Shown here in pieces: positions 7,571-63,752 of a DNA stretch of 64,000 bases. The number at the start of each line of letters is the position of its first letter. Positions within the stretch are counted from its first letter, which is position 1. The translations under genes were made by a program, and so were the position numbers. The stretch comes from Escherichia coli. Its GTDB lineage: Bacteria > Pseudomonadota > Gammaproteobacteria > Enterobacterales > Enterobacteriaceae. The notes beneath the pieces are model-generated. The model did no database searches. It had not been told where the DNA came from and was given only the letters and a program-made list of their open reading frames with translations. The stretch lies in the NCBI RefSeq assembly GCF_001677475.2, contig NZ_CP015229.1. One strand, 5' to 3'.

Positions 7571-7625
7571 TACTCACTAATGAGCATAAATTAATTTATA
7601 CATTAAAAACAATCAGATAAAAAAC

Positions 7626-10281: not shown

Positions 10282-10364
<83 letters not shown>

Positions 10365-42756: not shown

Positions 42757-42764
42757 CCTTAATA

Positions 42765-42798
42765 AAAAGGTCCGATGAGCATCGGACCTTTTATTTAG
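42765..42798. terminator. Bidirectional rho-independent terminator (ygbN + / ecdD-like -)
   Basis: aaaaag gtccgat gagc atcggac cttttattt: hairpin flanked by an A-run and a T-run. Confidence 0.75.
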
Positions 42799-43031
42799 CG
42801 CTTATCTGCCGCCAGCAGCGGCGGGATGCTCGGCACCATTGGCGCGTCATCAATATCTTTTTGTGTCATACGGAACGCTTGTGGGTAATGTTCACGGCTG
42901 GTGCGGCGTAGCGGTTCGGTATCGCGCCAGGTATAAAGGCAATGCTGGCACTGATATACCGTCCAGACATCTTTCACCGGCGATTTCGCCATCACTTCAA
43001 TCTGTTCATCGGCACAACGTGGACAAATCAT
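42795..43031 (-). CDS. ecdD: Small zinc-ribbon subunit of a UbiD-type phenolic acid decarboxylase (BsdD/VdcD-like)
   Basis: 78 aa ORF with CPRC ... CQHC pairs, immediately downstream of the UbiD-like gene on the same strand. Confidence 0.7.
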   Translation of the reverse strand: MICPRCADEQIEVMAKSPVKDVWTVYQCQHCLYTWRDTEPLRRTSREHYPQAFRMTQKDIDDAPMVPSIPPLLAADKR

Positions 43032-43041
43032 CTTCTTCTCC

Positions 43042-44469
43042 TTATTGACGCGCGGCCAGCATAGCGGTCAGTTTTTCAGCCCAGGCTTTGGTTTCCGGCA
43101 AATCCACCACCGGCTGGCTGTAGTGACCACGGTTGTCCGGGGCGACAGGCGTGGTGGCGTCGATAATCAGCTTGTCGGTGATGCCTGCCGGGCTTGAGCC
43201 AGGGTCGAGTTCCAGCACGGACATATTTGGTAGTTGCACCAAGTCGCCCGCCGGGTTCACTTTCGAGGAGAGCGCCCACATCACCTGCGGCAGGTTGAAC
43301 GGGTCAACGTCTTCATCGACCATAATCACCATCTTCACGTAGCCCAGACCGTGCGGCGTGGTCATCGCACGCAGGCCCACCGCGCGGGCAAAGCCGCCGT
43401 AGCGTTTTTTGGTGGAGATAATCGCCAGCAGGCCGTGGGTGTACATGGCGTTTACCGCCTGCACTTCCGGGAACTCGGCTTTCAGTTGTTGATACAGCGG
43501 TACGCAGGTGGCTGGCCCCATCAGGTAGTCGATTTCGGTCCACGGCATGCCGAGGTACAGCGATTCGAAAATCGGCCTGGTGCGGTAAGAGACTTTATCG
43601 ATGCGCACCACGGTCATGTTACGCCCGCCGGAGTAGTGTCCGGTAAACTCACCGAACGGCCCTTCGATTTCGCGTTTACGGCTTTCGATGACCCCTTCGA
43701 GGATCACTTCTGAACCCCACGGCACATCAAAACCGGTCAGCGGGGCGGTAGCGATCGGGTATGGGCTTTCACGCAGCGCGCCTGCCATTTCATACTCAGA
43801 CTGATCGTATTTCAGTGGCGTAGCCCCCATCAGCGTGATGATCGGATCGTTACCGAGCGTGATCGCAATCGGTAGATCTTCACCGCGCTCTTCTGCTTTA
43901 TGTAGATGCAGGGCGATATCGTGCATCGGCACCGGTTGTAGGCCGAGCTTTCGCTTGCCCTTCACTTCCATGCGGTAGATGCCGACGTTCTGCTTGCCGA
44001 AGTTATCCGGGTCGAGCGGATCGCGGGAAACCACGCAGGCTTTGTCGAGATAGAAACCGCCATCGCCATCGTTTAAACGAAACAGCGGCAGGATATCGAA
44101 CAGGTTAATCTCGTCGCTATCAACGGTGTTCTGCGCCCAGGCAGGATTGGCGCGGCGCTCCGGGGCAATCGGGAAGTTATCCCAGCGGCGAATAAACTCA
44201 TCAATCTGTTTTTTAACCGGAGTGTTTGCCGGCAGGCCGAGGGAAATCGCATGGTTCTGCCAGGAACCGATGGTATTCATCGCCACGCGGGCATCGGTAA
44301 AGCCGCGAATATTGTCAAACCACAGCGCCGGTGCGCCGTCGCCGATACGCCCGGTGGCGTTAGCTGCTGCTGCCAGATCCGGCTCAGCGTTCACCTCTTC
44401 GCTGATTTTCAGTAACTGGCCGTGGTCATCAAGCGCCTGTAAAAAGCTGCGTAAATCATCAAATGCCAT
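43042..44469 (-). CDS. ecdC: UbiD-family (prFMN-dependent) aromatic acid decarboxylase, subunit C type
   Basis: 475 aa ORF with UbiD-like core (GPFGEFTGHYSG); ATG at 44467-44469 overlaps the upstream gene's stop. Confidence 0.85.
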   Translation of the reverse strand: MAFDDLRSFLQALDDHGQLLKISEEVNAEPDLAAAANATGRIGDGAPALWFDNIRGFTDARVAMNTIGSWQNHAISLGLPANTPVKKQIDEFIRRWDNFPIAPERRANPAWAQNTVDSDEINLFDILPLFRLNDGDGGFYLDKACVVSRDPLDPDNFGKQNVGIYRMEVKGKRKLGLQPVPMHDIALHLHKAEERGEDLPIAITLGNDPIITLMGATPLKYDQSEYEMAGALRESPYPIATAPLTGFDVPWGSEVILEGVIESRKREIEGPFGEFTGHYSGGRNMTVVRIDKVSYRTRPIFESLYLGMPWTEIDYLMGPATCVPLYQQLKAEFPEVQAVNAMYTHGLLAIISTKKRYGGFARAVGLRAMTTPHGLGYVKMVIMVDEDVDPFNLPQVMWALSSKVNPAGDLVQLPNMSVLELDPGSSPAGITDKLIIDATTPVAPDNRGHYSQPVVDLPETKAWAEKLTAMLAARQ

Positions 44470-45062
44470 TATTTATTCTCCTGAGAAAAATTCCGGGCCT
44501 GCGGCAATCCTTGCCAGCGCCTGGCGTGGGGATGTTCGAGGCCAAATTGATCCAGCACGCGGGCTACCACATGGTGGACAATGTCATCTACCGTTTCGGG
44601 ATGGTTATAAAAGGCAGGCATCGGCGGCACCATCGCCACGCCCATGCGTGAAAGTGCGAGCATATTTTCGAGATGGATGGTGCTAAGCGGCATTTCACGC
44701 GGCACCAGCACCAGTTTGCGGCCTTCTTTGAGCACGACGTCCGCCGCGCGCCCTACCAGGCCATCGGCGTAACCAGCGCGGATACCGGAGAGCGTTTTCA
44801 TACTGCACGGAATAACGATCATGCCGTCGGTACGAAAAGAACCGGATGAGATGATCGCCGCCTGATCCGCCGGGTTATGGCTGAAGTCTGCGAGGGCAGC
44901 AACATCGCGAGCGCTGTAAGGCGTTTCCAGTTCAATGGTGGTTTTCGCCCACTTCGACATCACCAGATGAGTCTCGACATTCGGCATCTCCCGCAGCGCT
45001 TGCAGTAATGCCACACCAAGAGGCGCACCGGTAGCCCCTGTCATCCCGACGATCAGTTTCAT
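44469..45062 (-). CDS. ecdB: UbiX-family flavin prenyltransferase (decarboxylase subunit B type)
   Basis: 197 aa ORF starting MKLIVGMTGATGAPLGVALLQAL, flavoprotein fold like UbiX/Pad1. Confidence 0.85.
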   Translation of the reverse strand: MKLIVGMTGATGAPLGVALLQALREMPNVETHLVMSKWAKTTIELETPYSARDVAALADFSHNPADQAAIISSGSFRTDGMIVIPCSMKTLSGIRAGYADGLVGRAADVVLKEGRKLVLVPREMPLSTIHLENMLALSRMGVAMVPPMPAFYNHPETVDDIVHHVVARVLDQFGLEHPHARRWQGLPQARNFSQENK

Positions 45063-45078
45063 TGCTTATTCTCTTAAT

Positions 45079-45092
45079 TGTTCGTATACGAA
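45079..45092. promoter_or_regulatory. Perfect 14 bp palindrome, candidate MarR-type operator in the divergent ecdB/marR-like promoter region
   Basis: gttcgtatacgaac read directly, 16 nt upstream of the ecdB start codon. Confidence 0.55.
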
Positions 45093-45208
45093 CGTTATTA
45101 TTAACATACTCCTTCATTTCCACAGCGGCAAGGATTGAAAAGTAACAACATCTTCTTCGTCACTAAAAAACCGCTATGATAGCGACAGAGAATTAGCCCG
45201 GAGTTTAC

Positions 45209-45616
45209 ATGGCGTTACGAAATAAAGCGTTCCATCAGTTACGACAGCTTTTTCAGCAGCACACGGCTCGCTGGCAGCACGAGTTACCTGACCTGACCAA
45301 ACCACAGTATGCGGTGATGCGCGCCATTGCTGATAAGCCTGGTATCGAACAGGTGGCACTGATAGAAGCAGCAGTCAGCACCAAAGCAACGTTGGCAGAA
45401 ATGTTGGCAAGAATGGAGAATCGTGGCTTAGTCAGACGTGAACATGATGCCGCTGACAAGCGGCGTCGCTTTGTCTGGCTGACTGCCGAAGGAGAAAAGG
45501 TACTTGCTGCGGCGATACCGATTGGTGACAGTGTGGATGAGGAATTTTTGGGGCGTTTGAGTGCAGAAGAGAAGGAGCTGTTTATGCAGCTGGTGCGCAA
45601 GATGATGAGCACATAG
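45209..45616 (+). CDS. MarR-family transcriptional regulator
   Basis: 135 aa ORF with ATG at 45209 after GGAG; winged-helix region LTKPQYAVMRAIADKPGIEQVALIEAAVSTKATLAEMLARMENRGLVRR; divergent from the decarboxylase genes. Confidence 0.8.
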   Translation: MALRNKAFHQLRQLFQQHTARWQHELPDLTKPQYAVMRAIADKPGIEQVALIEAAVSTKATLAEMLARMENRGLVRREHDAADKRRRFVWLTAEGEKVLAAAIPIGDSVDEEFLGRLSAEEKELFMQLVRKMMST

Positions 45617-45625
45617 AATGCTGAT

Positions 45626-45660
45626 TGCCGGGTAGGACGCTGACGTGTCTTATCCAGGCG
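45626..45660. repeat. REP-like element
   Basis: gccgggtaggacgctgacgtgtcttatccaggc between the marR-like gene and the rpoS terminator. Confidence 0.6.
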
Positions 45661-45684
45661 ACAAAAACACATGCATCCCAAACA

Positions 45685-45720
45685 AAAGAAAAAAGGCCAG
45701 CCTCGCTTGAGACTGGCCTT
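45685..45720 (-). terminator. rpoS rho-independent terminator
   Basis: Minus strand reads ggccag-tctcaagcgagg-ctggcc followed by a T-run (A-run on plus at 45685-45694). Confidence 0.8.
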
Positions 45721-45736
45721 TCTGACAGATGCTTAC

Positions 45737-46729
45737 TTACTCGCGGAACAGCGCTTCGATATTCAGCCCCTGCGTTTGCAGGATTTCGCGCAAACGGCGC
45801 AGGCCTTCAACCTGAATCTGGCGAACACGTTCACGGGTGAGGCCAATTTCACGACCTACATCTTCCAGTGTTGCCGCTTCGTACCCCAGCAAACCGAATC
45901 GACGTGCCAGTACTTCACGCTGTTTGGCGTTCAGCTCGAACAGCCATTTGACGATGCTCTGCTTCATATCGTCATCTTGCGTGGTATCTTCCGGACCGTT
46001 CTCTTTTTCATCGGCCAGGATGTCCAGCAACGCTTTTTCGGAATCACCACCCAGCGGGGTGTCTACCGAGGTAATGCGCTCGTTAAGACGAAGCATACGG
46101 CTGACGTCATCAACTGGCTTATCCAGTTGCTCTGCGATCTCTTCCGCACTTGGTTCATGGTCCAGCTTATGGGACAACTCACGTGCGGTTCGCAGGTAAA
46201 CGTTCAGCTCCTTTACGATGTGAATCGGCAAACGAATAGTACGGGTTTGGTTCATAATCGCCCGTTCAATCGTCTGGCGAATCCACCAGGTTGCGTATGT
46301 TGAGAAGCGGAAACCACGTTCCGGGTCAAACTTCTCTACCGCGCGGATCAGCCCCAGGTTGCCCTCTTCGATCAGGTCCAGCAACGCCAGACCACGATTG
46401 CCATAACGGCGGGCAATTTTTACCACCAGACGCAAGTTACTCTCGATCATCCGGCGGCGGGAGGCAACATCTCCACGCAGTGCGCGACGCGCAAAATAAA
46501 CTTCTTCTTCGGCCGTTAACAGTGGTGAATAACCAATCTCACCAAGGTAAAGCTGAGTCGCGTCCAACACACGCTGTGTGGCTCCCTGCGATAACAGTTC
46601 CTCTTCGGCCAAATCGTTATCACTGGGTTCCTCTTCTACTAAGGCCTTTTCGTCAAAAACCTCAACTCCGTTCTCATCAAATTCCGCATCTTCATTTAAA
46701 TCATGAACTTTCAGCGTATTCTGACTCAT
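45737..46729 (-). CDS. rpoS: RNA polymerase sigma factor sigma-S (sigma-38)
   Basis: Start at ATG 46727-46729 ([21 protein letters not shown]) gives 330 aa, intact, with Glu at codon 33 (no internal stop). The track start at 46765 is an extension. Confidence 0.97.
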
Positions 46730-46791
46730 AAGGTGGCTCCTACCCGTGATCCCTTGACGGAACATTTAAGCAAAAGCCTGGTTCCGCCGAT

Positions 46792-47931
46792 TTATCGCTG
46801 CGGCAAATAACGCAGCGGGTTTACGGATTTCCCCTTGTAACGAATTTCAAAATGCAAGCGTGTTGAACTGGTTCCGGTGCTACCCATGGTTGCTATTTTT
46901 TGCCCCGCCTTCACTTCTTGTTGTTCCCGGACCAGCATTGTGTCGTTATGGGCGTAGGCACTCAGGTAATCATCATTATGTTTGATGATAATCAGATTAC
47001 CGTAGCCGCGCAGCGCGTTACCGGCATAAACAACGCGGCCATCTGCGGTCGCGATAATTGCCTGTCCTTTGCTGCCTGCGATATCAATCCCCTTGTTGCC
47101 CCCCTCAGAAGCGCCAAAGGTTTCGATCACTTTACCCTCAGTCGGCCAGCGCCAGGTGGAGATAGGCGTACTGGTTGATGTACTGCTGACAGTCGGCTCG
47201 GTTGTGCTTGCTGTTGGTACCGTTACAGGCGCTGTGACCGTGGTCGCAGTTGGCTTGTTGTTCGGCAACATTTTGTTAGCACTCTGTTCACCCGAAGACT
47301 CAGAATACGTAATTGTCGGTTGCGAAGCAACAGCAACGGTGGAATTTTGTGCAGGCTTGATCACAACTCCTTGCTCTGCTGCGTCGGCCTGGGTAATGGC
47401 ATTTCCGCCAGTGATTGGAGTACCGGAAGCATTCCCCACCTGTAAGGTCTGACCGACGTTCAGCGCGTATGGTGCCTGAATATTGTTGCGCTGAGCAAGG
47501 TCACGGAAATCGTTGCCAGTAATCCAGGCGATATAGAAAAGTGTGTCGCCTTTTTTCACTGTATAGGTACTGCCGCTATAACTGCCTTTCGGAATGTTCC
47601 CATACTGACGGTTATAGACGATGCGTCCGTTTTCCATCTGTACCGGCTGCTGAGCTACTGGCTGCACCGGCTGGATTTGCGGTTGTTGAGTGGCCTGAAT
47701 TTGTGGCTGCTGTACCGGCTGAATTTGCGGTTGCTGAGTTGTAGACGTCGTCCCCATTTTCGGCGGCGGCGTAATCAACATACCAGAATTGGTATTTGCA
47801 GGCGCATTGCCATTAACGGAGCTGACCGGGGCCGGTGGATTTGAAGTGTCAGAACAGCCTGCCAGCCATAGCGAAACCAGTGACAAAGCCGCAATGCGGC
47901 GAACGGTGAATTTTGGGCTTCCCGCGCTCAT
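46792..47931 (-). CDS. nlpD: Murein hydrolase activator lipoprotein NlpD (LysM + M23 peptidase-like)
   Basis: 379 aa ORF with lipobox LAGCS, Gln/Pro-rich repeats, LysM and C-terminal LytM domain. Confidence 0.95.
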
Positions 47932-48070
47932 TTATCCCCCAGGAAAAATTGGTTAATAACCAGTGACATAATTACCGTGCAAGGCACCATACTGAACACT
48001 GGAAAAGATGTTCACGATACGCTGACCTGCGGCAAAATAACCAGGAAAAATCCAGGTATTTCCTCACGTT

Positions 48071-49432
<1,362 letters not shown>

Positions 49433-49452
<20 letters not shown>

Positions 49453-50482
49453 AATCACCTGTTGTGTTGATAAGTTCCCTGACAACGCTGGTTGCAAAAC
49501 TACCCGCCGGAAGCCAGAAACGGATTTCTACGGTGACGTCATCCCACCAGTTCCAGCTTAATTGTTGCGGATACAGCAGCATCGCTCTGCGCGCGGCTTC
49601 AACTTTTTCGCGCACCAGTAAGGCTTGTAATTCAGTTTCTGCGGCGACAGCTGCTTGTTCGAATGCCAGCGCTTCACGCTGAGTTCCCCATTCGCCACTG
49701 CCCGGCAATGTGGCGGTTATCATTAGCTCTTTATCGTTGACGCGACGCTGTAATTCCGCCAGTTCTTCGGTGGTTGCAACAAACCAGCTACCACGTCCGG
49801 CTAATTGTAGCGCATCGCCGTCAACAACTTGATTAACGTCTGCTTTTTTGAGGCGCTCAGCAACAATCTGATTAAACAACGCACTGCGGGCTGCCGACAA
49901 CCAAAAACTCCGTTTATTGCGATCGCGCACCGGAGTATTGGTTTGCGCCCAGCGCAGCGCGCCCTGCAAGTTGCTACCGCCAATCCCAAAACGTTGGGCA
50001 CCGAAGTAGTTCGGTACACCTTTTACGCAAATATCGATCAGACGTTGTTCAACGTCATCGCGATTGCTCACTTCGCGCAGAACCAGGGTAAAGGCGTTAC
50101 CTTTCAGCGCGCCTAAACGCAGCTTGCGCTTGTGCCGCGCATACTCCAGCACCTGGCAGCCTTCCAGTTGAAAGGCGCTCAGATCGGGCATTTCCTTGCC
50201 CGGCACGCGAGCGCATAACCACTGTTCCGTAACAGCATGTTTGTCTTTTTGCCCAGCGAAGCTGACTTCACGGGAATGAATTTTCAGGAATTTCGCCAGT
50301 GCATCCGCCACAAAACGGGTATTGCAGCCGTTTTTGAGGATTCTAACCAGAATATGCTCACCTTCACCATCAGGCTCAAAGCCCAAATCTTCCACCACCA
50401 CAAAGTCTTCCGGATTGGCTTTCAGCAGCCCGGTGCCTTGCGGTTTACCGTGGAGGTAAGTGAGATTATCAAACTCAATCAT
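49433..50482 (-). CDS. truD: tRNA pseudouridine13 synthase
   Basis: 349 aa ORF in the ispDF-truD-surE-pcm operon position. Confidence 0.93.
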
Positions 50483-56816: not shown

Positions 56817-57516
56817 GGGAGTTCTACCGCAGGGGCGGGGAACTCCAAGTGATATCCATCATCGCATCCAGTGCGCCCGGTTTATCCCCGCTGGCGCGGG
56901 GAACACCAAATCCAGCCAGCCGCCGACGGTAATCACCCCGGTTTATCCCCGCTGGCGCGGGGAACACTATGGGGTAGGGCGCTATCAGACATTTACGCAC
57001 GGTTTATCCCCGCTGGCGCGGGGAACACTGCAAGTAACGTTAAGGGAACCGTGGAGACAGCGGTTTATCCCCGCTGGCGCGGGGAACACTTAGAAAACGC
57101 AATGAGCCGCGCGCCCATACCCGGTTTATCCCCGCTGGCGCGGGGAACACGGCACGCTGGACTGAACAAATCCCTGGGCCATCGGTTTATCCCCGCTGGC
57201 GCGGGGAACACACTTACAACCACAATAATAAAAAAAGCCTCGTCGGTTTATCCCCGCTGGCGCGGGGAACACGCCGCTATCTCACCACCAGAACTGTTAC
57301 CCGTCGGTTTATCCCCGCTGGCGCGGGGAACACTTGCAGTGGATAGTCATGTAGCCCGCGCGGGCCGGTTTATCCCCGCTGGCGCGGGGAACACTTTAAA
57401 TACTGCCGTTCCAGCTTGTTGATCGCCGGTTTATCCCCGCTGGCGCGGGGAACACCGTAACTGCCTGTACACGCTGTAATGGCTCACCGGTTTATCCCCG
57501 CTGGCGCGGGGAACAC
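56817..57516 (-). CRISPR. Type I-E CRISPR array: 12 repeats (11 canonical + 1 degenerate terminal) and 11 spacers of 32 bp
   Basis: 29 bp repeat cggtttatccccgctggcgcggggaacac (plus strand) at 56878, 56939, 57000, 57061, 57122, 57183, 57244, 57305, 57366, 57427, 57488 with exact 61 bp period; degenerate repeat gggagttctaccgcaggggcggggaactc at 56817-56845 at the leader-distal (iap) end. The crRNA is read from the minus strand. Confidence 0.98.
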
Positions 57517-57612: not shown

Positions 57613-58822
<1,210 letters not shown>

Positions 58823-58826
<4 letters not shown>

Positions 58827-59473
58827 GCCTCTGCTCCGGGTTTGATCAGCATCAGACCACAACCGAACGCCCGGCTTTTGCCATACCCCTGACTGAGACG
58901 TTGCAGAAATAACCCAGGATCGGTGACCGTAAGCATCCCCGTATAATCCACGCTACTGAACTGGATCAGTTGCCGGGAGTTTTCCCGCCGCAGTTGCTGT
59001 TGTCGGTAGGCATCAACCGAAGTATCCAGCAGTGTAAAACCGCTTCTCTCCCCCTGCGCTGCCAGCCAGTTCAGCGCAGCCTGTTGTTGATGCAACCAGA
59101 CATCACTTCCTTCCACCGGCCCCCTCACCTGCCGTTTCGCCTCCATCAGCAAGTCGTGGCGTTTGCCCGCTTTACAAATTGTTGGATTCGCCCGCAGGTT
59201 GAAACAAAGGGATTGTCCGGTACGCAACTCTGGCGCAAATGGTCGGCATTCGATGGTGAAAATATCACTTTCCGCCGGGCGTTCCTGCGACAGGACAAAA
59301 AAGCGAAACGCCCCCTGGAGTTCTTCCCGACGATAAAGAAATTGCCTTTCTTTGCCGCCAGGAAAAAGATCCCACAGCCACTGATGCATTACATATTCAC
59401 CGCGATCCACCAAATGCAGCAACTGCGCAGGCGAAAGCTGGCCGGTATGTAATGTTATTCTTGAGAGGTACAT
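58823..59473 (-). CDS. cas6e: crRNA endoribonuclease Cas6e (CasE/Cse3)
   Basis: Start at ATG 59471-59473 (MYLSRITLH, matching the conserved MYLS N-terminus); glycine-rich C-terminal loop GCGLMLIKP. The track start at 59611 overlaps cas5. Confidence 0.9.
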
Positions 59474-60201
59474 GGTTCCTCCTTGCTGAGCCACGGCCCC
59501 TGATTGATGGTGCGTTCCCCAAACAGCCACTGCTGACGATTTAAAGGAACATCCCGGCGACGTAATATTTTGCTCGCGACCAGGCCGTCGTGTTCCCCTT
59601 CCCACCAGCATTCATCCTGAAGTTTCGGGAGTGAGACTTTCAGTTCGCGGAAACTATCCTGATACTGTTGGTATGCGTTACGTAAGACATCAGACGCGTT
59701 GCCTTCGAGCAGTAACGGCGCAAGTGGTAACGCCAGCGGATGACTTTTTCGCCCCAGATAAAGCGGAAAAACCGGATGACGTAAACCGTCCTGCAACTGT
59801 TCAAGGCTGTAAGGCGCATCGGGGGTTGTTGCCACCGCCACCATCCACCAGGCATCGGTGTAGTAGTCGCGCCGGGAGATAATCGCGCTCAGAAGATCAG
59901 GGGCGCTCAACTCTTCGCGACGGCTGAAATAACGCGCTTTACGCACCTCTTTTGGCATCTGGACCGTGTGATAATCCCGTGCCCAGCGCGGGTTACGGCT
60001 GGCGCAAACCACCAGTGAATAGTGGCGGTTAAACGCGTTTAATCGTTCGGTATCATCACGCCGAATCCCTACCCCGGCAGCCAGCAGCCCCAGCAATGCT
60101 GAGCGCGAAGGCAGTTCATGGGTATGACGCACTTCGCCGGGGGCATCGACGCCCCAGGATGCCATTGGCCCATGAAGCTGAAAAATCAAATATTGGCTCA
60201 T
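59455..60201 (-). CDS. cas5: Cascade subunit Cas5 (CasD)
   Basis: 248 aa ORF MSQYLIFQLHGPMASWG, conserved Cas5e N-terminus. Confidence 0.9.
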   Translation of the reverse strand: MSQYLIFQLHGPMASWGVDAPGEVRHTHELPSRSALLGLLAAGVGIRRDDTERLNAFNRHYSLVVCASRNPRWARDYHTVQMPKEVRKARYFSRREELSAPDLLSAIISRRDYYTDAWWMVAVATTPDAPYSLEQLQDGLRHPVFPLYLGRKSHPLALPLAPLLLEGNASDVLRNAYQQYQDSFRELKVSLPKLQDECWWEGEHDGLVASKILRRRDVPLNRQQWLFGERTINQGPWLSKEEPCTSQE

Positions 60202-60211
60202 TAGCCGCCCC

Positions 60212-61267
60212 TTACGCGCAGATAAAGTCCAGCACGTCCTTCATGCTTCCCTGTTTGTTCATCACGTCAAAGCTTGCGCATTCGGTCTTCTGTTCATAGA
60301 CCGTATTCATATTTTCGCGAAGCGTTGTAATACGCTGCACCGCCACATCTAACTGCCGGGTGCCATTAATGGGTTCATAGAAAGCCGCCGCCAGAGAGCG
60401 TGGTTGTTCAGTGCCTTTTTCTGCCAGCGCCCAGGAGGCGTAGGCACGGCTGGCAAAGCTGTTCTGTTTGCCGGTTGGGGAGACTTTAAGTGCGGCTTCC
60501 GTAAAGGCGCGCAAGGTCTGATTAGCTAACGCTTCGTCACCGCCGAGGTTTTCGACCAGCAGATCTTTATCGATGCAGATATAGGTGTAGAACAGCGCAG
60601 AACCGAATCCGGTTTCACCAAGATGCCCGGCACCGGCATCTTCAGAAGCCTGGCGCAAATCATCAACGGCGGTGAAAAAATCATCTTCGACAATCGTTTC
60701 ACTGACACCAAATGCATGCGCGACCTGGCAGGCGGCTTCAACATTAAATTCGGGTTTATTCGCCAGCATACGACCAAACATAGCGATATCTACTGCCATG
60801 CGATCTTTACGTAACAAAGCGAGATCTTCCTCTTTTGGCGCGCGCTTTTCTTCGGCCAGTTGATGGGCCAGCGCTTTTACGGCGTCAAATTCTGCCGGGC
60901 TGATATGGACTAGCTGTTCAGTTTCGGCGTTAGTGAGCGGATCTTTTGGTTTTTTGTCGTTTTTAGCTTTCCCAAGATAATCCGCAATTTTCGCCGCCCA
61001 TTCGATGGCTTTTTTCTCTTCGATGCCTTTCTCAATCAGGATAGTTGCCGCCTCACGCGCAATACGCCCACTGCGAATACCAATATGGCCCGCCAGCGCC
61101 TGTTCAAAAAGTGCAGAAGTGCGCCACGCACGTTTCAGACTTTGTGAGGAAACGCGCAGACGCGTTGCTCCACCCAGTACCACAGTTTTTGGCGCACCGG
61201 TGTCATCACGGTTAAGGTTGGCAGCAGGGTAAGCGGTTAACAAATGAAGCTGAATAAATGTCGTCAT
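60212..61267 (-). CDS. cas7: Cascade backbone subunit Cas7 (CasC/Cse4)
   Basis: 351 aa ORF MTTFIQLHLLTAYPAANLNRDDTGAPKT, Cas7e signature. Confidence 0.9.
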   Translation of the reverse strand: MTTFIQLHLLTAYPAANLNRDDTGAPKTVVLGGATRLRVSSQSLKRAWRTSALFEQALAGHIGIRSGRIAREAATILIEKGIEEKKAIEWAAKIADYLGKAKNDKKPKDPLTNAETEQLVHISPAEFDAVKALAHQLAEEKRAPKEEDLALLRKDRMAVDIAMFGRMLANKPEFNVEAACQVAHAFGVSETIVEDDFFTAVDDLRQASEDAGAGHLGETGFGSALFYTYICIDKDLLVENLGGDEALANQTLRAFTEAALKVSPTGKQNSFASRAYASWALAEKGTEQPRSLAAAFYEPINGTRQLDVAVQRITTLRENMNTVYEQKTECASFDVMNKQGSMKDVLDFICA

Positions 61268-61281
61268 GAGATAGTCCTTTA

Positions 61282-61818
61282 TTAATTTTGTTCGTTATCG
61301 GCGTCGCCAGCCTGGTAATATTCCAGCGCCCAGCGGATACGGATAAATTCTGTTGGCCGCTGCTGGCGGCGGTGATGATTGAGCAGATCGTCGCTCTCCT
61401 GGCACCAGCGGAAAATATCGTCTGCCAAAGAGATAAGATTGACGGAACCATTTAATAATTTGACCGCGCGACGTAACTGGCGCAGTAATTCATCCGGCGT
61501 TTTGACTGCCGACAGGCGAGTAAAACGCCCCTCAGACATTACCGCCGCCAACTGCGCGGCAAAAGGCTGCCGTTCATCAATGGCTTTTACATTGGCGGCA
61601 ACGGCGGCAACCAGCGCCAGTGCGGTAAAACGCCACTCCTGTGATTCAATTTTCCACAACGTGTGGGTCTGCATCAGCAGTGAACGAAACCCTTCTGACA
61701 GACAAACATCATTAACCGTTGTGCTACGCCGCAGACTGGCACGATTGCCGCGTTTTTCCTGCAACTCTTCGTGCCATTTACGCAGCGTGGCTTTGTGCTC
61801 CTCTTTTACAATACTCAT
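61282..61818 (-). CDS. cse2: Cascade small subunit Cse2 (CasB)
   Basis: 178 aa ORF; its ATG overlaps the cse1 stop (ATGA). Confidence 0.88.
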   Translation of the reverse strand: MSIVKEEHKATLRKWHEELQEKRGNRASLRRSTTVNDVCLSEGFRSLLMQTHTLWKIESQEWRFTALALVAAVAANVKAIDERQPFAAQLAAVMSEGRFTRLSAVKTPDELLRQLRRAVKLLNGSVNLISLADDIFRWCQESDDLLNHHRRQQRPTEFIRIRWALEYYQAGDADNEQN

Positions 61819-63377
61819 TCAGCAGCCTCCTGCTTTTTCTCCCTGGCGGCTTTAGCACTTTGCTTCTCCGCCGATGTTGTAAAATATTTCTTGCGCGCGG
61901 TCATGACGCGTTTCAAATCAACGGGCTCATAAGGATTAGTGAATACACGCTCGTCAAAATCCTGACGCGCGAATAACCAAATTTCCTTTTGCCATTTGCC
62001 GAGTAATTCATCCGCATCCTGACCTTCTTCAATTTGGCGCACTAACCTCAGGAAGCGATGCTGAGTTTTGTTCCAGAAGTCGATATCCACAAAACTGAAA
62101 TCACCCCTTGCACCTTTTGGATCGGAGAACCATGCTTCTTTCAATGCACTCCGTAACAGACTCAGAATCCGTGAAGCCGTTTGCGCAGCCAGCCGCAGCT
62201 TCGGTATCTGGCCTTCTTTTTTATTGAGCAGTAGCGGGAAATGGTGTTCGTACCAACAGCGCGCTTTCATGTTGTCAAAATCATAACCAAATCCCCACAG
62301 GCCCACTTTTGCCTGTTTCAGACTGCTGGCATTAAAGAGTTTCACCACCAGCGCGGGAAGTTCCGTATTGTTTTCTGATTTACCCGTTTCGATAAGGCCT
62401 AACCAGTCGCGCCAGATTAAACCGCCCGGTTGTGGTTTAACGGAGTAAAACTCGCCACCCTCTTTAAGTGGTACACGGTAAGGCGTTAAGGGATGCTGCC
62501 ACATGGCATAATTGGCACCATAATTTTTGGTCGTCATCAGGCTCAGGAGCGCGTCGTTCTGCTCGTCGCAAATATCGCAGTTGCCGACTGTCGTGGTATT
62601 AAAATCAATACGTATACGCCGCGGCATTCCCCAGTACGCCTGGAGTTTATTGACCTGATCATGGGTTACCACCGCACCGGCCAGTTCGCTGGTACGCGTC
62701 GGGCCTAGCCAGGGGAAAATCAGATCGTCAAATTTTTTGGGTAGCGGTAAGTCGGCTTCATCCTGCGGCATCACGTTGAGCCACAGTTTGCGCCACAAGG
62801 GTGTTTGTTGATTGCCCTGATATTCCTGTAATTCAATGAGAGTCGTCATCGGCCCACCGCCGCGTAAACCGGTGCGATAGCCTTTGCCGCCCGCGGGTGC
62901 ATTCAACTGTAAAGAGAACAAGGCCAATGCTAAGCAATGGGGGCACAGATATTCCGTTACACCCCGCTTGATAAAATGGTCTTTATTAAACTTCGTCGTT
63001 TGAGAACCGGGAATCTCAGGCAGTAGCGAAGCGACCGGAACTTTATCTCCCGTGAGCGCCTCAAAATCCTGCATAAATGAAGGGGAATCTGGCCCAAACT
63101 GGAAAGCATGTTCTAAGGACAGCAATGCTTCCCGTAGCTTTTCAGCTTCCAGTCCGTCTTCCCAGATATCATCCCAACGACGATGATCTTTTGGCGCGAA
63201 GCTGGTTTGTAGTAGCCCCAGCAAAAACTGCCAGGCCGCCCCCTGGAGATCTGCCCGCGGCGCAGCGATATCGACAACATTTTCATCCGCCAGATCGACT
63301 GGCGCCAGTTTGCCTGTCGTTCCGTCTTTATAACGAACGGGCAACCACGGGGTTGTTATAATTGAAAAAAATTCCAT
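61815..63377 (-). CDS. cse1: Cascade large subunit Cse1 (CasA)
   Basis: Start at ATG 63375-63377 (MEFFSIITTPWLPVR) gives 520 aa; the sequence is clearly not the K-12 CasA as I recall it, so this is the other E. coli I-E variant. Confidence 0.88.
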   Translation of the reverse strand: MEFFSIITTPWLPVRYKDGTTGKLAPVDLADENVVDIAAPRADLQGAAWQFLLGLLQTSFAPKDHRRWDDIWEDGLEAEKLREALLSLEHAFQFGPDSPSFMQDFEALTGDKVPVASLLPEIPGSQTTKFNKDHFIKRGVTEYLCPHCLALALFSLQLNAPAGGKGYRTGLRGGGPMTTLIELQEYQGNQQTPLWRKLWLNVMPQDEADLPLPKKFDDLIFPWLGPTRTSELAGAVVTHDQVNKLQAYWGMPRRIRIDFNTTTVGNCDICDEQNDALLSLMTTKNYGANYAMWQHPLTPYRVPLKEGGEFYSVKPQPGGLIWRDWLGLIETGKSENNTELPALVVKLFNASSLKQAKVGLWGFGYDFDNMKARCWYEHHFPLLLNKKEGQIPKLRLAAQTASRILSLLRSALKEAWFSDPKGARGDFSFVDIDFWNKTQHRFLRLVRQIEEGQDADELLGKWQKEIWLFARQDFDERVFTNPYEPVDLKRVMTARKKYFTTSAEKQSAKAAREKKQEAAE

Positions 63378-63752
63378 ACGCTTTCCTCGCAAATAAGACC
63401 ATCCATGGTAGGTTGTCCATCACCATATTCAAGAATCAATCGAAAAGAGAGATTACATCATATTAAATGAATATATTGAAAATTAGATTATTATTAAATA
63501 ATCAATAAATCACACGAATATATAAAGATAATTTTCTATAATGCTTTTCGCTCAGGCTCTATCACTTAATAAAAACCAAAGTATTCTTTATCAAAAGGTT
63601 TTTCAACTCTGCTTCCGGACATTGTTACATATATCAATAACTCTTAGAGATTTTCTTTATTTCGAATAACCCTTATTTTTGATATAAACGTCTTCAGTTC
63701 CCTGTCTAAGGGATTAACCAAGTTAGTGATACACGTATATCATTTTATGCTC
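63378..63752 (-). promoter_or_regulatory. AT-rich cse1 upstream region (cas operon promoter region)
   Basis: About 375 bp of very AT-rich DNA between the cas3 end and the cse1 start, as expected for the cas operon promoter region. Confidence 0.7.

Follow-up and report, generated by a model that had tools for sequence, protein, structure and literature searches.

The closest described relatives of this locus are the HosA/decarboxylase operons of Escherichia coli and the vdcBCD-type clusters of Klebsiella, Enterobacter and the Firmicutes. HosA binds a 14-bp site in EMSA and is released by 4-hydroxybenzoate (4-HBA), and a Kd of 4.74 uM is given (PMC6261655); the relief of DNA binding by 4-HBA was published for the UMN026 protein. 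A preprint, in its summary of Roy and Ranjan (2016), describes the operon as repressed by HosA and inducible with 4-HBA, HosA as repressing its own gene, and the palindromic site as lying past the transcription start. On the enzyme side, published work on homologues shows that VdcC requires VdcD in order to act on 4-HBA and vanillate, the Zn ligands of the Sedimentibacter hydroxybenzoicus subunit (ShVdcD) are C3, C6, C28 and C31, and K. pneumoniae kpdBCD placed in E. coli converts 4-HBA to phenol.

We analysed a 64-kb stretch of E. coli DNA (the window), in which the interval between ygbN and rpoS carries a regulator gene and three enzyme genes. We are highly confident that this is the hosA–vdcBCD (ecdBCD, kpdBCD, pad1–yclC–yclD) 4-HBA decarboxylase island of Escherichia, which is already described, its regulator, its 14-bp operator and its inducer, 4-HBA, all being in print. 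The features of the interval are as follows.

42764–42792, no strand assigned: bidirectional intrinsic terminator, common to ygbN (+) and the D-subunit gene (−); folds on both strands, also in K-12; left flank of the island
42795–43031, − strand: vdcD/ecdD/kpdD, 78-aa zinc-ribbon subunit D (NCBIfam VdcD; PDB 7AE4 chain a, ShdD)
43042–44469, − strand: vdcC/ecdC/kpdC (yclC), 475-aa UbiD-family prFMN-dependent decarboxylase subunit C (NCBIfam VdcC; PDB 7AE4 chain A)
44469–45062, − strand: vdcB/ecdB/kpdB (pad1), 197-aa UbiX-family flavin prenyltransferase (NCBIfam VdcB; PDB 1SBZ)
45080–45093, no strand assigned: HosA operator, perfect 14-bp palindrome GTTCGTATACGAAC (match to published oligo T_H; conservation)
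45103–45131, − strand: candidate sigma-70 promoter of the B-C-D operon, proposed from the sequence and its spacing to the palindrome
45209–45616, + strand: hosA, 135-aa MarR/SlyA-family repressor (identity to PDB 8AGA)
45622–45663, + strand: REP-like imperfect hairpin downstream of hosA, within the island (folding; related copy at 10289–10312)
45690–45723, − strand: rpoS intrinsic terminator, common with K-12; right flank of the island (terminator scan; folding)

The first-pass annotation had recognized a UbiX-like, UbiD-like and zinc-ribbon module, and the family models and solved structures bear this out. The B subunit scores 310.5 bits against NCBIfam VdcB (cut-off 290) and 255.4 bits against the UbiX subfamily model (cut-off 188), and 193 of its 197 residues, counted from the alignment, are identical to those of O157:H7 Pad1 (PDB 1SBZ). 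The C subunit reaches 789.6 bits with VdcC (cut-off 650) and matches ShVdcC (PDB 7AE4 chain A) at E 1.1e-160, and the D subunit reaches 120.5 bits with VdcD (cut-off 30) and matches ShdD (PDB 7AE4 chain a) at E 7.5e-11. In D, Cys3, Cys6, Cys28 and Cys31 form two CXXC knuckles, with the same numbering as the ShVdcD Zn ligands. The C subunit carries NVGIYR (161–166), which includes R166, and EGPFGEF (269–275), which includes E269 and E274 and aligns with the ShVdcC stretch EGPFGEF that holds the catalytic Glu278. R166 and E269 are presumably members of the UbiD-family Glu-Arg-Glu catalytic set.

That B and C might instead be the UbiX and UbiD paralogues of ubiquinone biosynthesis we regard as having virtually no chance of being right. 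The superfamilies are the same, and there is a match to the UbiD structure 2IDB (E 6e-46), but the score against the UbiD equivalog model (PRK10922) is 171.6 bits, far from its cut-off of 788, and we rejected a ubiquinone UbiD/UbiX identity on these scores. The majority of complete E. coli genomes, moreover, lack the genes, and these are accompanied by a D subunit, which the literature ties to vanillate/4-HBA decarboxylases.

The first-pass annotation had held that substrate and inducer were not evident; the literature supplies both, naming 4-HBA as the HosA ligand, and 4-HBA and vanillate as substrates of close homologues. The C subunit is ∼96% identical to its homologues in other Klebsiella species, and by analogy the enzyme of the window would be expected to decarboxylate 4-HBA and vanillate. 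UbiD-family substrate ranges are wide and overlapping, and B and D proteins of such clusters are described as boosting AroY activity in engineered strains, so one might read C as a protocatechuate (AroY-type), gallate or other aromatic-acid decarboxylase. We find this very improbable: the C subunit clears the VdcC cut-off and matches ShVdcC at E 1e-160, whereas the protocatechuate decarboxylase structures 5O3M, 5NY5 and 5O3N are matched only at E 1e-28 to 1e-24, and both the Klebsiella identity, given the conversion of 4-HBA to phenol by kpdBCD, and the ligand of the regulator, 4-HBA, point to a 4-HBA decarboxylase. An AroY identity for C was rejected, a close relationship to the solved AroY enzymes not being found and the E-values being far weaker than for ShVdcC.

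The B, C and D genes form one operon, lying on the same strand with tight spacing and a single terminator after D. They had been described as three translationally coupled genes, which holds for B and C, where stop and start overlap by one base (TAATG), but not for C and D, which are separated by a gap of 10 nt with GGAG immediately past the C stop (TAAGGAGAAGAAGATG). The C gene has no internal stop and differs from an E. coli allele at 48 nucleotides, only 4 of which alter an amino acid; we count this as evidence of selection in favour of the decarboxylase-island reading. The operon is dispensable, since the C gene is interrupted by an internal stop in at least one E. coli genome, that of an O145 strain.

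The divergent MarR-family gene of the first-pass annotation is hosA (45209–45616, + strand). Its product is identical to the ‘Transcriptional regulator HosA’ of PDB 8AGA at 133 of 135 residues over the full length, differing from the crystallized protein by Q122K and N134S, and from one E. coli allele at four residues. The published 4-HBA contact residues, F8, H9, R12, F15, K31 and D110, are all found at those positions in the translation. The literature is our source for the binding of HosA to DNA, for its release by 4-HBA, for induction and for the activity of close homologues of the enzymes, and we infer that the allele of the window acts like those that have been studied.

The perfect palindrome GTTCGTATACGAAC that had been noticed between hosA and the B gene is indeed present at 45080–45093, 17 nt from the B-subunit ATG and in a single copy in the window. 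Oligo T_H in the supplement of PMC6261655, which was built with the HosA binding site, reads ...TTAATTGTTCGTATACGAACGTTATTA, and this corresponds to window positions 45074–45100, native flanks included. A full-text literature search for the 14-mer returned no paper, and the sequence was located only in a supplement. Several oligos of the same supplement print the site with an extra T, as GTTTCGTATACGAAC; this 15-mer is absent from the six E. coli genomes sampled, and we take it for a variant introduced in printing or design. The 14-bp palindrome is exact in all six of these genomes, and the same holds for nine loci from other taxa, among them Klebsiella, Kosakonia and Shewanella. These nine were retrieved by a search that demanded the central 12 bp, so that variation could show only in the outer G and C and in the flanks, and lineages with variant operators would be invisible to it. 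The flanking bases diverge in these nine loci, each of which has a divergent hosA homologue (50–98% identical) and the B-C(-D) gene order. The Shewanella operator is identical to that of Escherichia, although the HosA proteins of the two share only 50% identity.

A sceptic might take the palindrome for a chance inverted repeat, or for a small RNA or DNA hairpin (a terminator or 5′-UTR structure) that binds no protein. There are four perfect 14-bp palindromes in the 64-kb window, an unremarkable number against a mean of 4.5 in shuffles, and on the + strand the terminator scan gives this one a weak terminator-like call. We give such a reading almost no credence: the published binding-site oligo matches the palindrome, which stays the same from genus to genus although the bases around it diverge, in the + orientation no gene terminates ahead of it, and the hairpin stem would be just 5–6 bp. 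Within the 146-bp intergenic region ∼0.008 perfect 14-bp palindromes are expected.

A promoter scan of this 146-bp region found none at the scan threshold, below which the promoter that we propose for the B-C-D operon falls. This candidate has −35 TTGCCG (45131–45126), a 17-nt spacer and −10 TATGTT (45108–45103), with 8 of 12 consensus matches; TTG and TAnnnT recur at the same distance from the palindrome in other genera. We propose the −35/−10 assignment because of this fixed distance to the operator and because the published site lies downstream of a transcription start; with this placement the operator would fall just past the start, as the literature reports. The single palindrome might control both divergent promoters.

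We favour the published scheme, which would run as follows in the window. VdcB, a UbiX-type flavin prenyltransferase, would make the prenylated FMN that the UbiD-type decarboxylase VdcC is predicted to use as cofactor, and VdcD, the small four-cysteine zinc-ribbon subunit, would bind VdcC and be required for its activity. Together the three proteins would catalyse the reversible, non-oxidative conversion of 4-HBA to phenol and of vanillate to guaiacol. A HosA dimer would bind the palindrome, which sits 17 nt before the vdcB ATG and would lie just past the transcription start, a position from which bound HosA would block RNA polymerase. Binding of 4-HBA at the dimer interface would then cause HosA to leave the DNA, turning the operon on.

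An alternative is that HosA is chiefly a global regulator of motility and virulence, its neighbourhood with the decarboxylase operon being secondary. Enteropathogenic E. coli HosA mutants are reported, in a paper that cites the original work, to have reduced flagellin expression, but the sole perfect HosA-type site in the 64 kb precedes the operon, and hosA, operator and B-C-D are kept together as far as Shewanella, an argument for local control as the ancestral function of HosA. We consider a chiefly global role unlikely, while noting that local and global roles are mutually compatible.

Alignment with K-12 gives the island a span of 42796–45690, ∼2895 bp, which substitutes for 8 bp (GTGCACAG) of K-12; identity with K-12 restarts at 45691. 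In the comparison with K-12 and O157-type regions proposed by the first-pass annotation, O157:H7-type genomes carry the island, and the ygbN–rpoS interval is, as stated there, a documented variable region present here in its long, decarboxylase-bearing form. The ygbN terminator had been called bidirectional, and its hairpin (∼42764–42792), the sequence of which is the same in K-12, does fold on either strand, with −17.3 kcal/mol (z −4.3) for one and −19.6 kcal/mol (z −5.6) for the other. Runs of A and T flank the hairpin, and the D stop codon (42795–42797) abuts the T-run. On the right the terminator scan located the rpoS terminator (45690–45723; −26.5 kcal/mol). These two terminators do bound the island, but the REP-like hairpin at 45622–45663 (−23.5 kcal/mol, z −4.9), which had been given as part of its boundary, does not, because the limits set by the alignment place it within the island. 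We take this hairpin to resemble the E. coli REP consensus; a related copy is found at 10289–10312. No match to Rfam was obtained at gathering thresholds anywhere in the window, and therefore no known RNA element is involved.

The island was found in 2380 of 5426 complete E. coli genomes (∼44%), to whose islands its DNA is 94.5–97.2% identical; the remaining window is 96.5–97.9% identical to any complete E. coli genome, and rpoS–surE alone is closer, at 99.4%. We rejected a recent foreign origin as judged by unusual divergence, the best match of the island being 97.2% and the remaining window being similar at 96.5–97.9%. GC content is in slight excess in the B-C-D genes (55–59%, versus 49–55% in the flanks), and neither direct repeats nor mobility genes were found at the island ends. 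In the rather divergent Escherichia lineage of the window, the difference between the island and its E. coli counterparts is about equal to that of the core flanks, from which it would follow that the lineage has long had the island and that K-12 has lost it. We tentatively suggest that hosA, operator and BCD may be an ancient self-contained sensing and detoxifying cassette, moving among gamma-proteobacteria without a mobility gene, and that the 8-bp state of K-12 may be a loss and not the ancestral form; we would not put this at even odds.

As a discovery the locus carries little weight, its enzymes, regulator, operator and inducer being published, as is the EMSA test that had been suggested for the palindrome, and HosA with its 14-bp operator is already in use in 4-HBA biosensors. 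A small addition is the identity of the 14-bp operator across all loci retrieved, which range from Escherichia to Shewanella. The island is also a typing marker for the mutS–rpoS hotspot, and a route by which some enterobacteria turn 4-HBA (from parabens, plant phenolics or tyrosine metabolism) into phenol in the gut.

In the o454–nlpD typing scheme, pattern IV is E2348/69-like, with an amplicon of 4546 bp (Ewers et al., 2014; PMC4209514). The window, in which ygbN and kpdD–kpdC–kpdB–slyA are present, belongs to this pattern and shows no difference of substance from it: the F5 and R2 primer sites were both located, F5 with one mismatch, and give an in silico amplicon of 4547 bp, and the F6 and R4 sites are present too. 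O157:H7-type genomes (pattern I) have the same island as the window without ygbI–ygbN, so that pphB adjoins it.

Compared with the HosA/decarboxylase operon of E. coli UMN026, E2348/69 and O157:H7, the window has the same gene order, divergent regulator, 14-bp operator and rpoS-adjacent site and differs at the allele level only, with K122 and S134 in HosA; the candidate −10, TATGTT in the window, is TATTTT in the O157-type allele and in three others that were sampled. With the VdcCD enzymes of S. hydroxybenzoicus and Bacillus subtilis (ShdCD, BsdCD; PDB 7AE4) it shares a UbiD-type C subunit with the catalytic-Glu motif kept and a four-Cys zinc-ribbon D subunit with identical Cys positions. These Firmicutes enzymes are far more distant from the window than the enterobacterial homologues are. 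In B. subtilis the cluster is under the control of BsdA, a LysR-type regulator, instead of a MarR protein. The clusters of K. pneumoniae (KpdBCD) and Enterobacter cloacae (EcdBCD) have the same three genes, and loci of other Klebsiella species have the same operator and a hosA-like gene upstream, as in the window; the Klebsiella and Enterobacter clusters differ in lying at another chromosomal location and in having HosA homologues that are only 74–81% identical.

Four intact open reading frames lie between the ygbN stop (42756) and the rpoS stop codon (45737–45739, minus strand). The hairpins reported in the first-pass annotation, namely the ygbN terminator, which can fold on either strand, a REP-like element and the rpoS terminator, are all present. 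The genes and the latter two hairpins are positioned as follows.

42795–43031, minus strand: D-subunit gene (78 aa)
43042–44469, minus strand: C-subunit gene (475 aa)
44469–45062, minus strand: B-subunit gene (197 aa)
45209–45616, plus strand: MarR-family gene, hosA (135 aa)
45622–45663: REP-like hairpin
45690–45723: rpoS terminator

The initial description of three translationally coupled genes holds for B and C, whose stop and start overlap by one base (TAATG), but C and D are separated by 10 nt, with GGAG immediately 3′ of the C stop.

In a K-12-derived genome the ygbN–rpoS spacer is 93 bp. Alignment of this spacer with the window showed that both terminators are common to the two, and that 42796–45690 of the window, about 2895 bp, occupies the place of GTGCACAG in K-12. 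The REP-like element, at first taken to be an island boundary, therefore lies inside the island. Neither direct repeats nor mobility genes were seen at the island ends. A second REP-like sequence, GACGCTGACGCGTCTTATCCGACC, related to the copy within the island, is located at 10289–10312; the first 25 kb of the window has many matches per genome (median 18), indicating repeated elements there.

Protein comparisons bore out the proposed decarboxylase module. The B, C and D subunits score above the cut-offs of the NCBIfam models VdcB (310.5 against 290 bits), VdcC (789.6 against 650 bits) and VdcD (120.5 against 30 bits) respectively, with the defining residues in place. The B subunit is identical at 193 of 197 positions to 1SBZ, annotated as a ‘probable aromatic acid decarboxylase’; the C and D subunits match VdcC (chain A, E = 1.1e-160) and ShdD (chain a, E = 7.5e-11) of Sedimentibacter hydroxybenzoicus in 7AE4. 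NVGIYR and EGPFGEF are kept in the C subunit, the latter aligning with the stretch of ShVdcC that carries the catalytic Glu278, and the D subunit shares with ShVdcD (ShdD) its four zinc-binding residues, Cys3, Cys6, Cys28 and Cys31. The C subunit scored 171.6 with the ubiquinone UbiD model, far under the cut-off of 788, and solved structures of AroY match it weakly. Comparison of the C gene with its closest E. coli allele gave 4 amino-acid against 48 nucleotide differences, so the gene is under purifying selection. VdcC strictly needs VdcD to act on 4-hydroxybenzoate and vanillate, and E. coli expressing Klebsiella pneumoniae kpdBCD forms phenol from 4-hydroxybenzoate. Of six E. coli genomes sampled, one (O145 RM12522-C8, locus L015, 460–1887) has the C-subunit gene annotated as a pseudogene, interrupted by an internal stop; the operon is therefore decaying in some strains.

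The 135-aa regulator, for which no NCBIfam model reached its cut-off, is assigned by family to MarR only; it is identical at 133 of 135 positions to 8AGA, ‘Transcriptional regulator HosA’, differing by Q122K and N134S. Residues F8, H9, R12, F15, K31 and D110, reported to surround bound 4-hydroxybenzoate, are all kept. As cited in the HosA crystal-structure preprint, Roy and Ranjan (2016) found that HosA is a repressor both of itself and of the non-oxidative hydroxyarylic acid decarboxylase operon, and that 4-hydroxybenzoate, when bound to HosA, disrupts the DNA binding of the protein, with induction of the operon; a palindromic site downstream of the transcription start led to the suggestion of a roadblock mechanism. 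Substrate and inducer, initially considered not evident, had already been answered in print, and gel-shift experiments of the kind then proposed have been published in a biosensor study, showing binding to a ‘14-bp TFBS of HosA’ and 4-hydroxybenzoate-dependent release; that study also measured a Kd for this ligand of 4.74 µM (PMC6261655).

The 146-bp divergent intergenic region contains a perfect palindrome, GTTCGTATACGAAC, at 45080–45093; it lies 17 nt from the B-subunit start codon (ATG) and ∼115 bp upstream of that of hosA. Window positions 45074–45100 are identical, from TTAATT on, to oligo T_H, CAATTAAGCTTAATTGTTCGTATACGAACGTTATTA (supplement of PMC6261655), so that the palindrome first described corresponds to the published HosA site. 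Several other oligos in that supplement have the site printed with an extra T (GTTTCG...), a form absent from all six E. coli genomes sampled. About 0.008 perfect 14-bp palindromes are expected in any given 146-bp region; the whole 64 kb holds four, against a shuffle mean of 4.5. The three others, at 7586, 9089 and 60029 (ATAAATTAATTTAT, CAAAGACGTCTTTG and TTAAACGCGTTTAA), are as many as chance predicts.

We then scanned one genome per species for the palindrome's central 12 bp followed by a UbiX-like start, a pattern that favours conserved operators and leaves variant operators outside its reach. Nine loci were retrieved, from Escherichia albertii, a Citrobacter MAG, four Klebsiella (K. oxytoca, K. 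spallanzanii, K. indica and a gut MAG), Kosakonia sacchari, a soil MAG and Shewanella mangrovi. All nine have a divergent upstream HosA homologue (50–98% identical) and B then C genes, with D wherever the locus is long enough. Each keeps the whole 14-bp palindrome, including the outer G and C, which were free in the pattern; the bases around it differ. Across these genera the C subunit retains 88–99% amino-acid identity (88% even in Shewanella), far better conserved than the B subunit (77–97%) or HosA (50–98%).

TTG and TAnnnT recur across the retrieved loci at a fixed distance upstream of the palindrome. The candidate B-C-D promoter in the window (minus strand; −35 TTGCCG, 45131–45126; 17-nt spacer; −10 TATGTT, 45108–45103), which a generic promoter scan did not call, would place the transcription start a few bases ahead of the palindrome, in agreement with the published description. 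A hosA promoter with TATTAT (45097–45102) as its −10 may overlap the operator, and would bear on the reported autorepression.

Protein identity, key residues, operator sequence and conservation are direct observations. Binding, induction and catalysis are known from published work on proteins that are nearly identical or closely related to these: HosA dimers would sit on the palindrome just past the B-C-D transcript start and block it; 4-hydroxybenzoate entering the cell would bind HosA, leading to its release. VdcB would then supply prenylated FMN, and the carboxyl group would be taken off by VdcC together with the zinc-ribbon subunit VdcD, yielding phenol, or guaiacol from vanillate.

Most of the window has a best identity of 96.5–97.9% among 5426 complete E. 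coli genomes, so that the host would seem to belong to a divergent lineage of Escherichia. The rpoS-nlpD-pcm-surE segment adjoining the island (45737–49500) reaches 99.4%, and this more E. coli-like stretch possibly arose by recombination. Within it, rpoS (45737–46729, minus strand) is intact, with Glu at codon 33; that of the K-12-derived genome has an internal stop. RpoS is identical in the window and E. coli PapM-32-1, with 8 nucleotide differences. A 24-nt imperfect tandem repeat in nlpD (47661–47737; 3.2 copies) encodes QQPQIQP-type repeats, and the annotated nlpD length is not equal in two comparison genomes. Downstream of iap, type I-E cas genes (57903–63392) adjoin a CRISPR array (57000–57516; 61-bp periodicity; repeat CGGTTTATCCCCGCTGGCGCGGGGAACAC).

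The island, with at least 80% of its length covered, is present in 2380 of the 5426 genomes and is always chromosomal; in those that lack it, the match is limited to the rpoS terminator. O157:H7-type genomes differ in having the island directly after pphB, without ygbI–ygbN. We conclude that the first-pass observation is confirmed and its interpretation supported, with small anatomical corrections. Both the system and the variable region that holds it are already known: of the four o454–nlpD patterns of Ewers et al. (2014; PMC4209514), pattern IV carries kpdD-kpdC-kpdB-slyA, and the long, decarboxylase-containing form of the polymorphic mutS–rpoS region fits it, the F5/R2 primers of that study giving a 4547-bp product on the window against the published 4546 bp.
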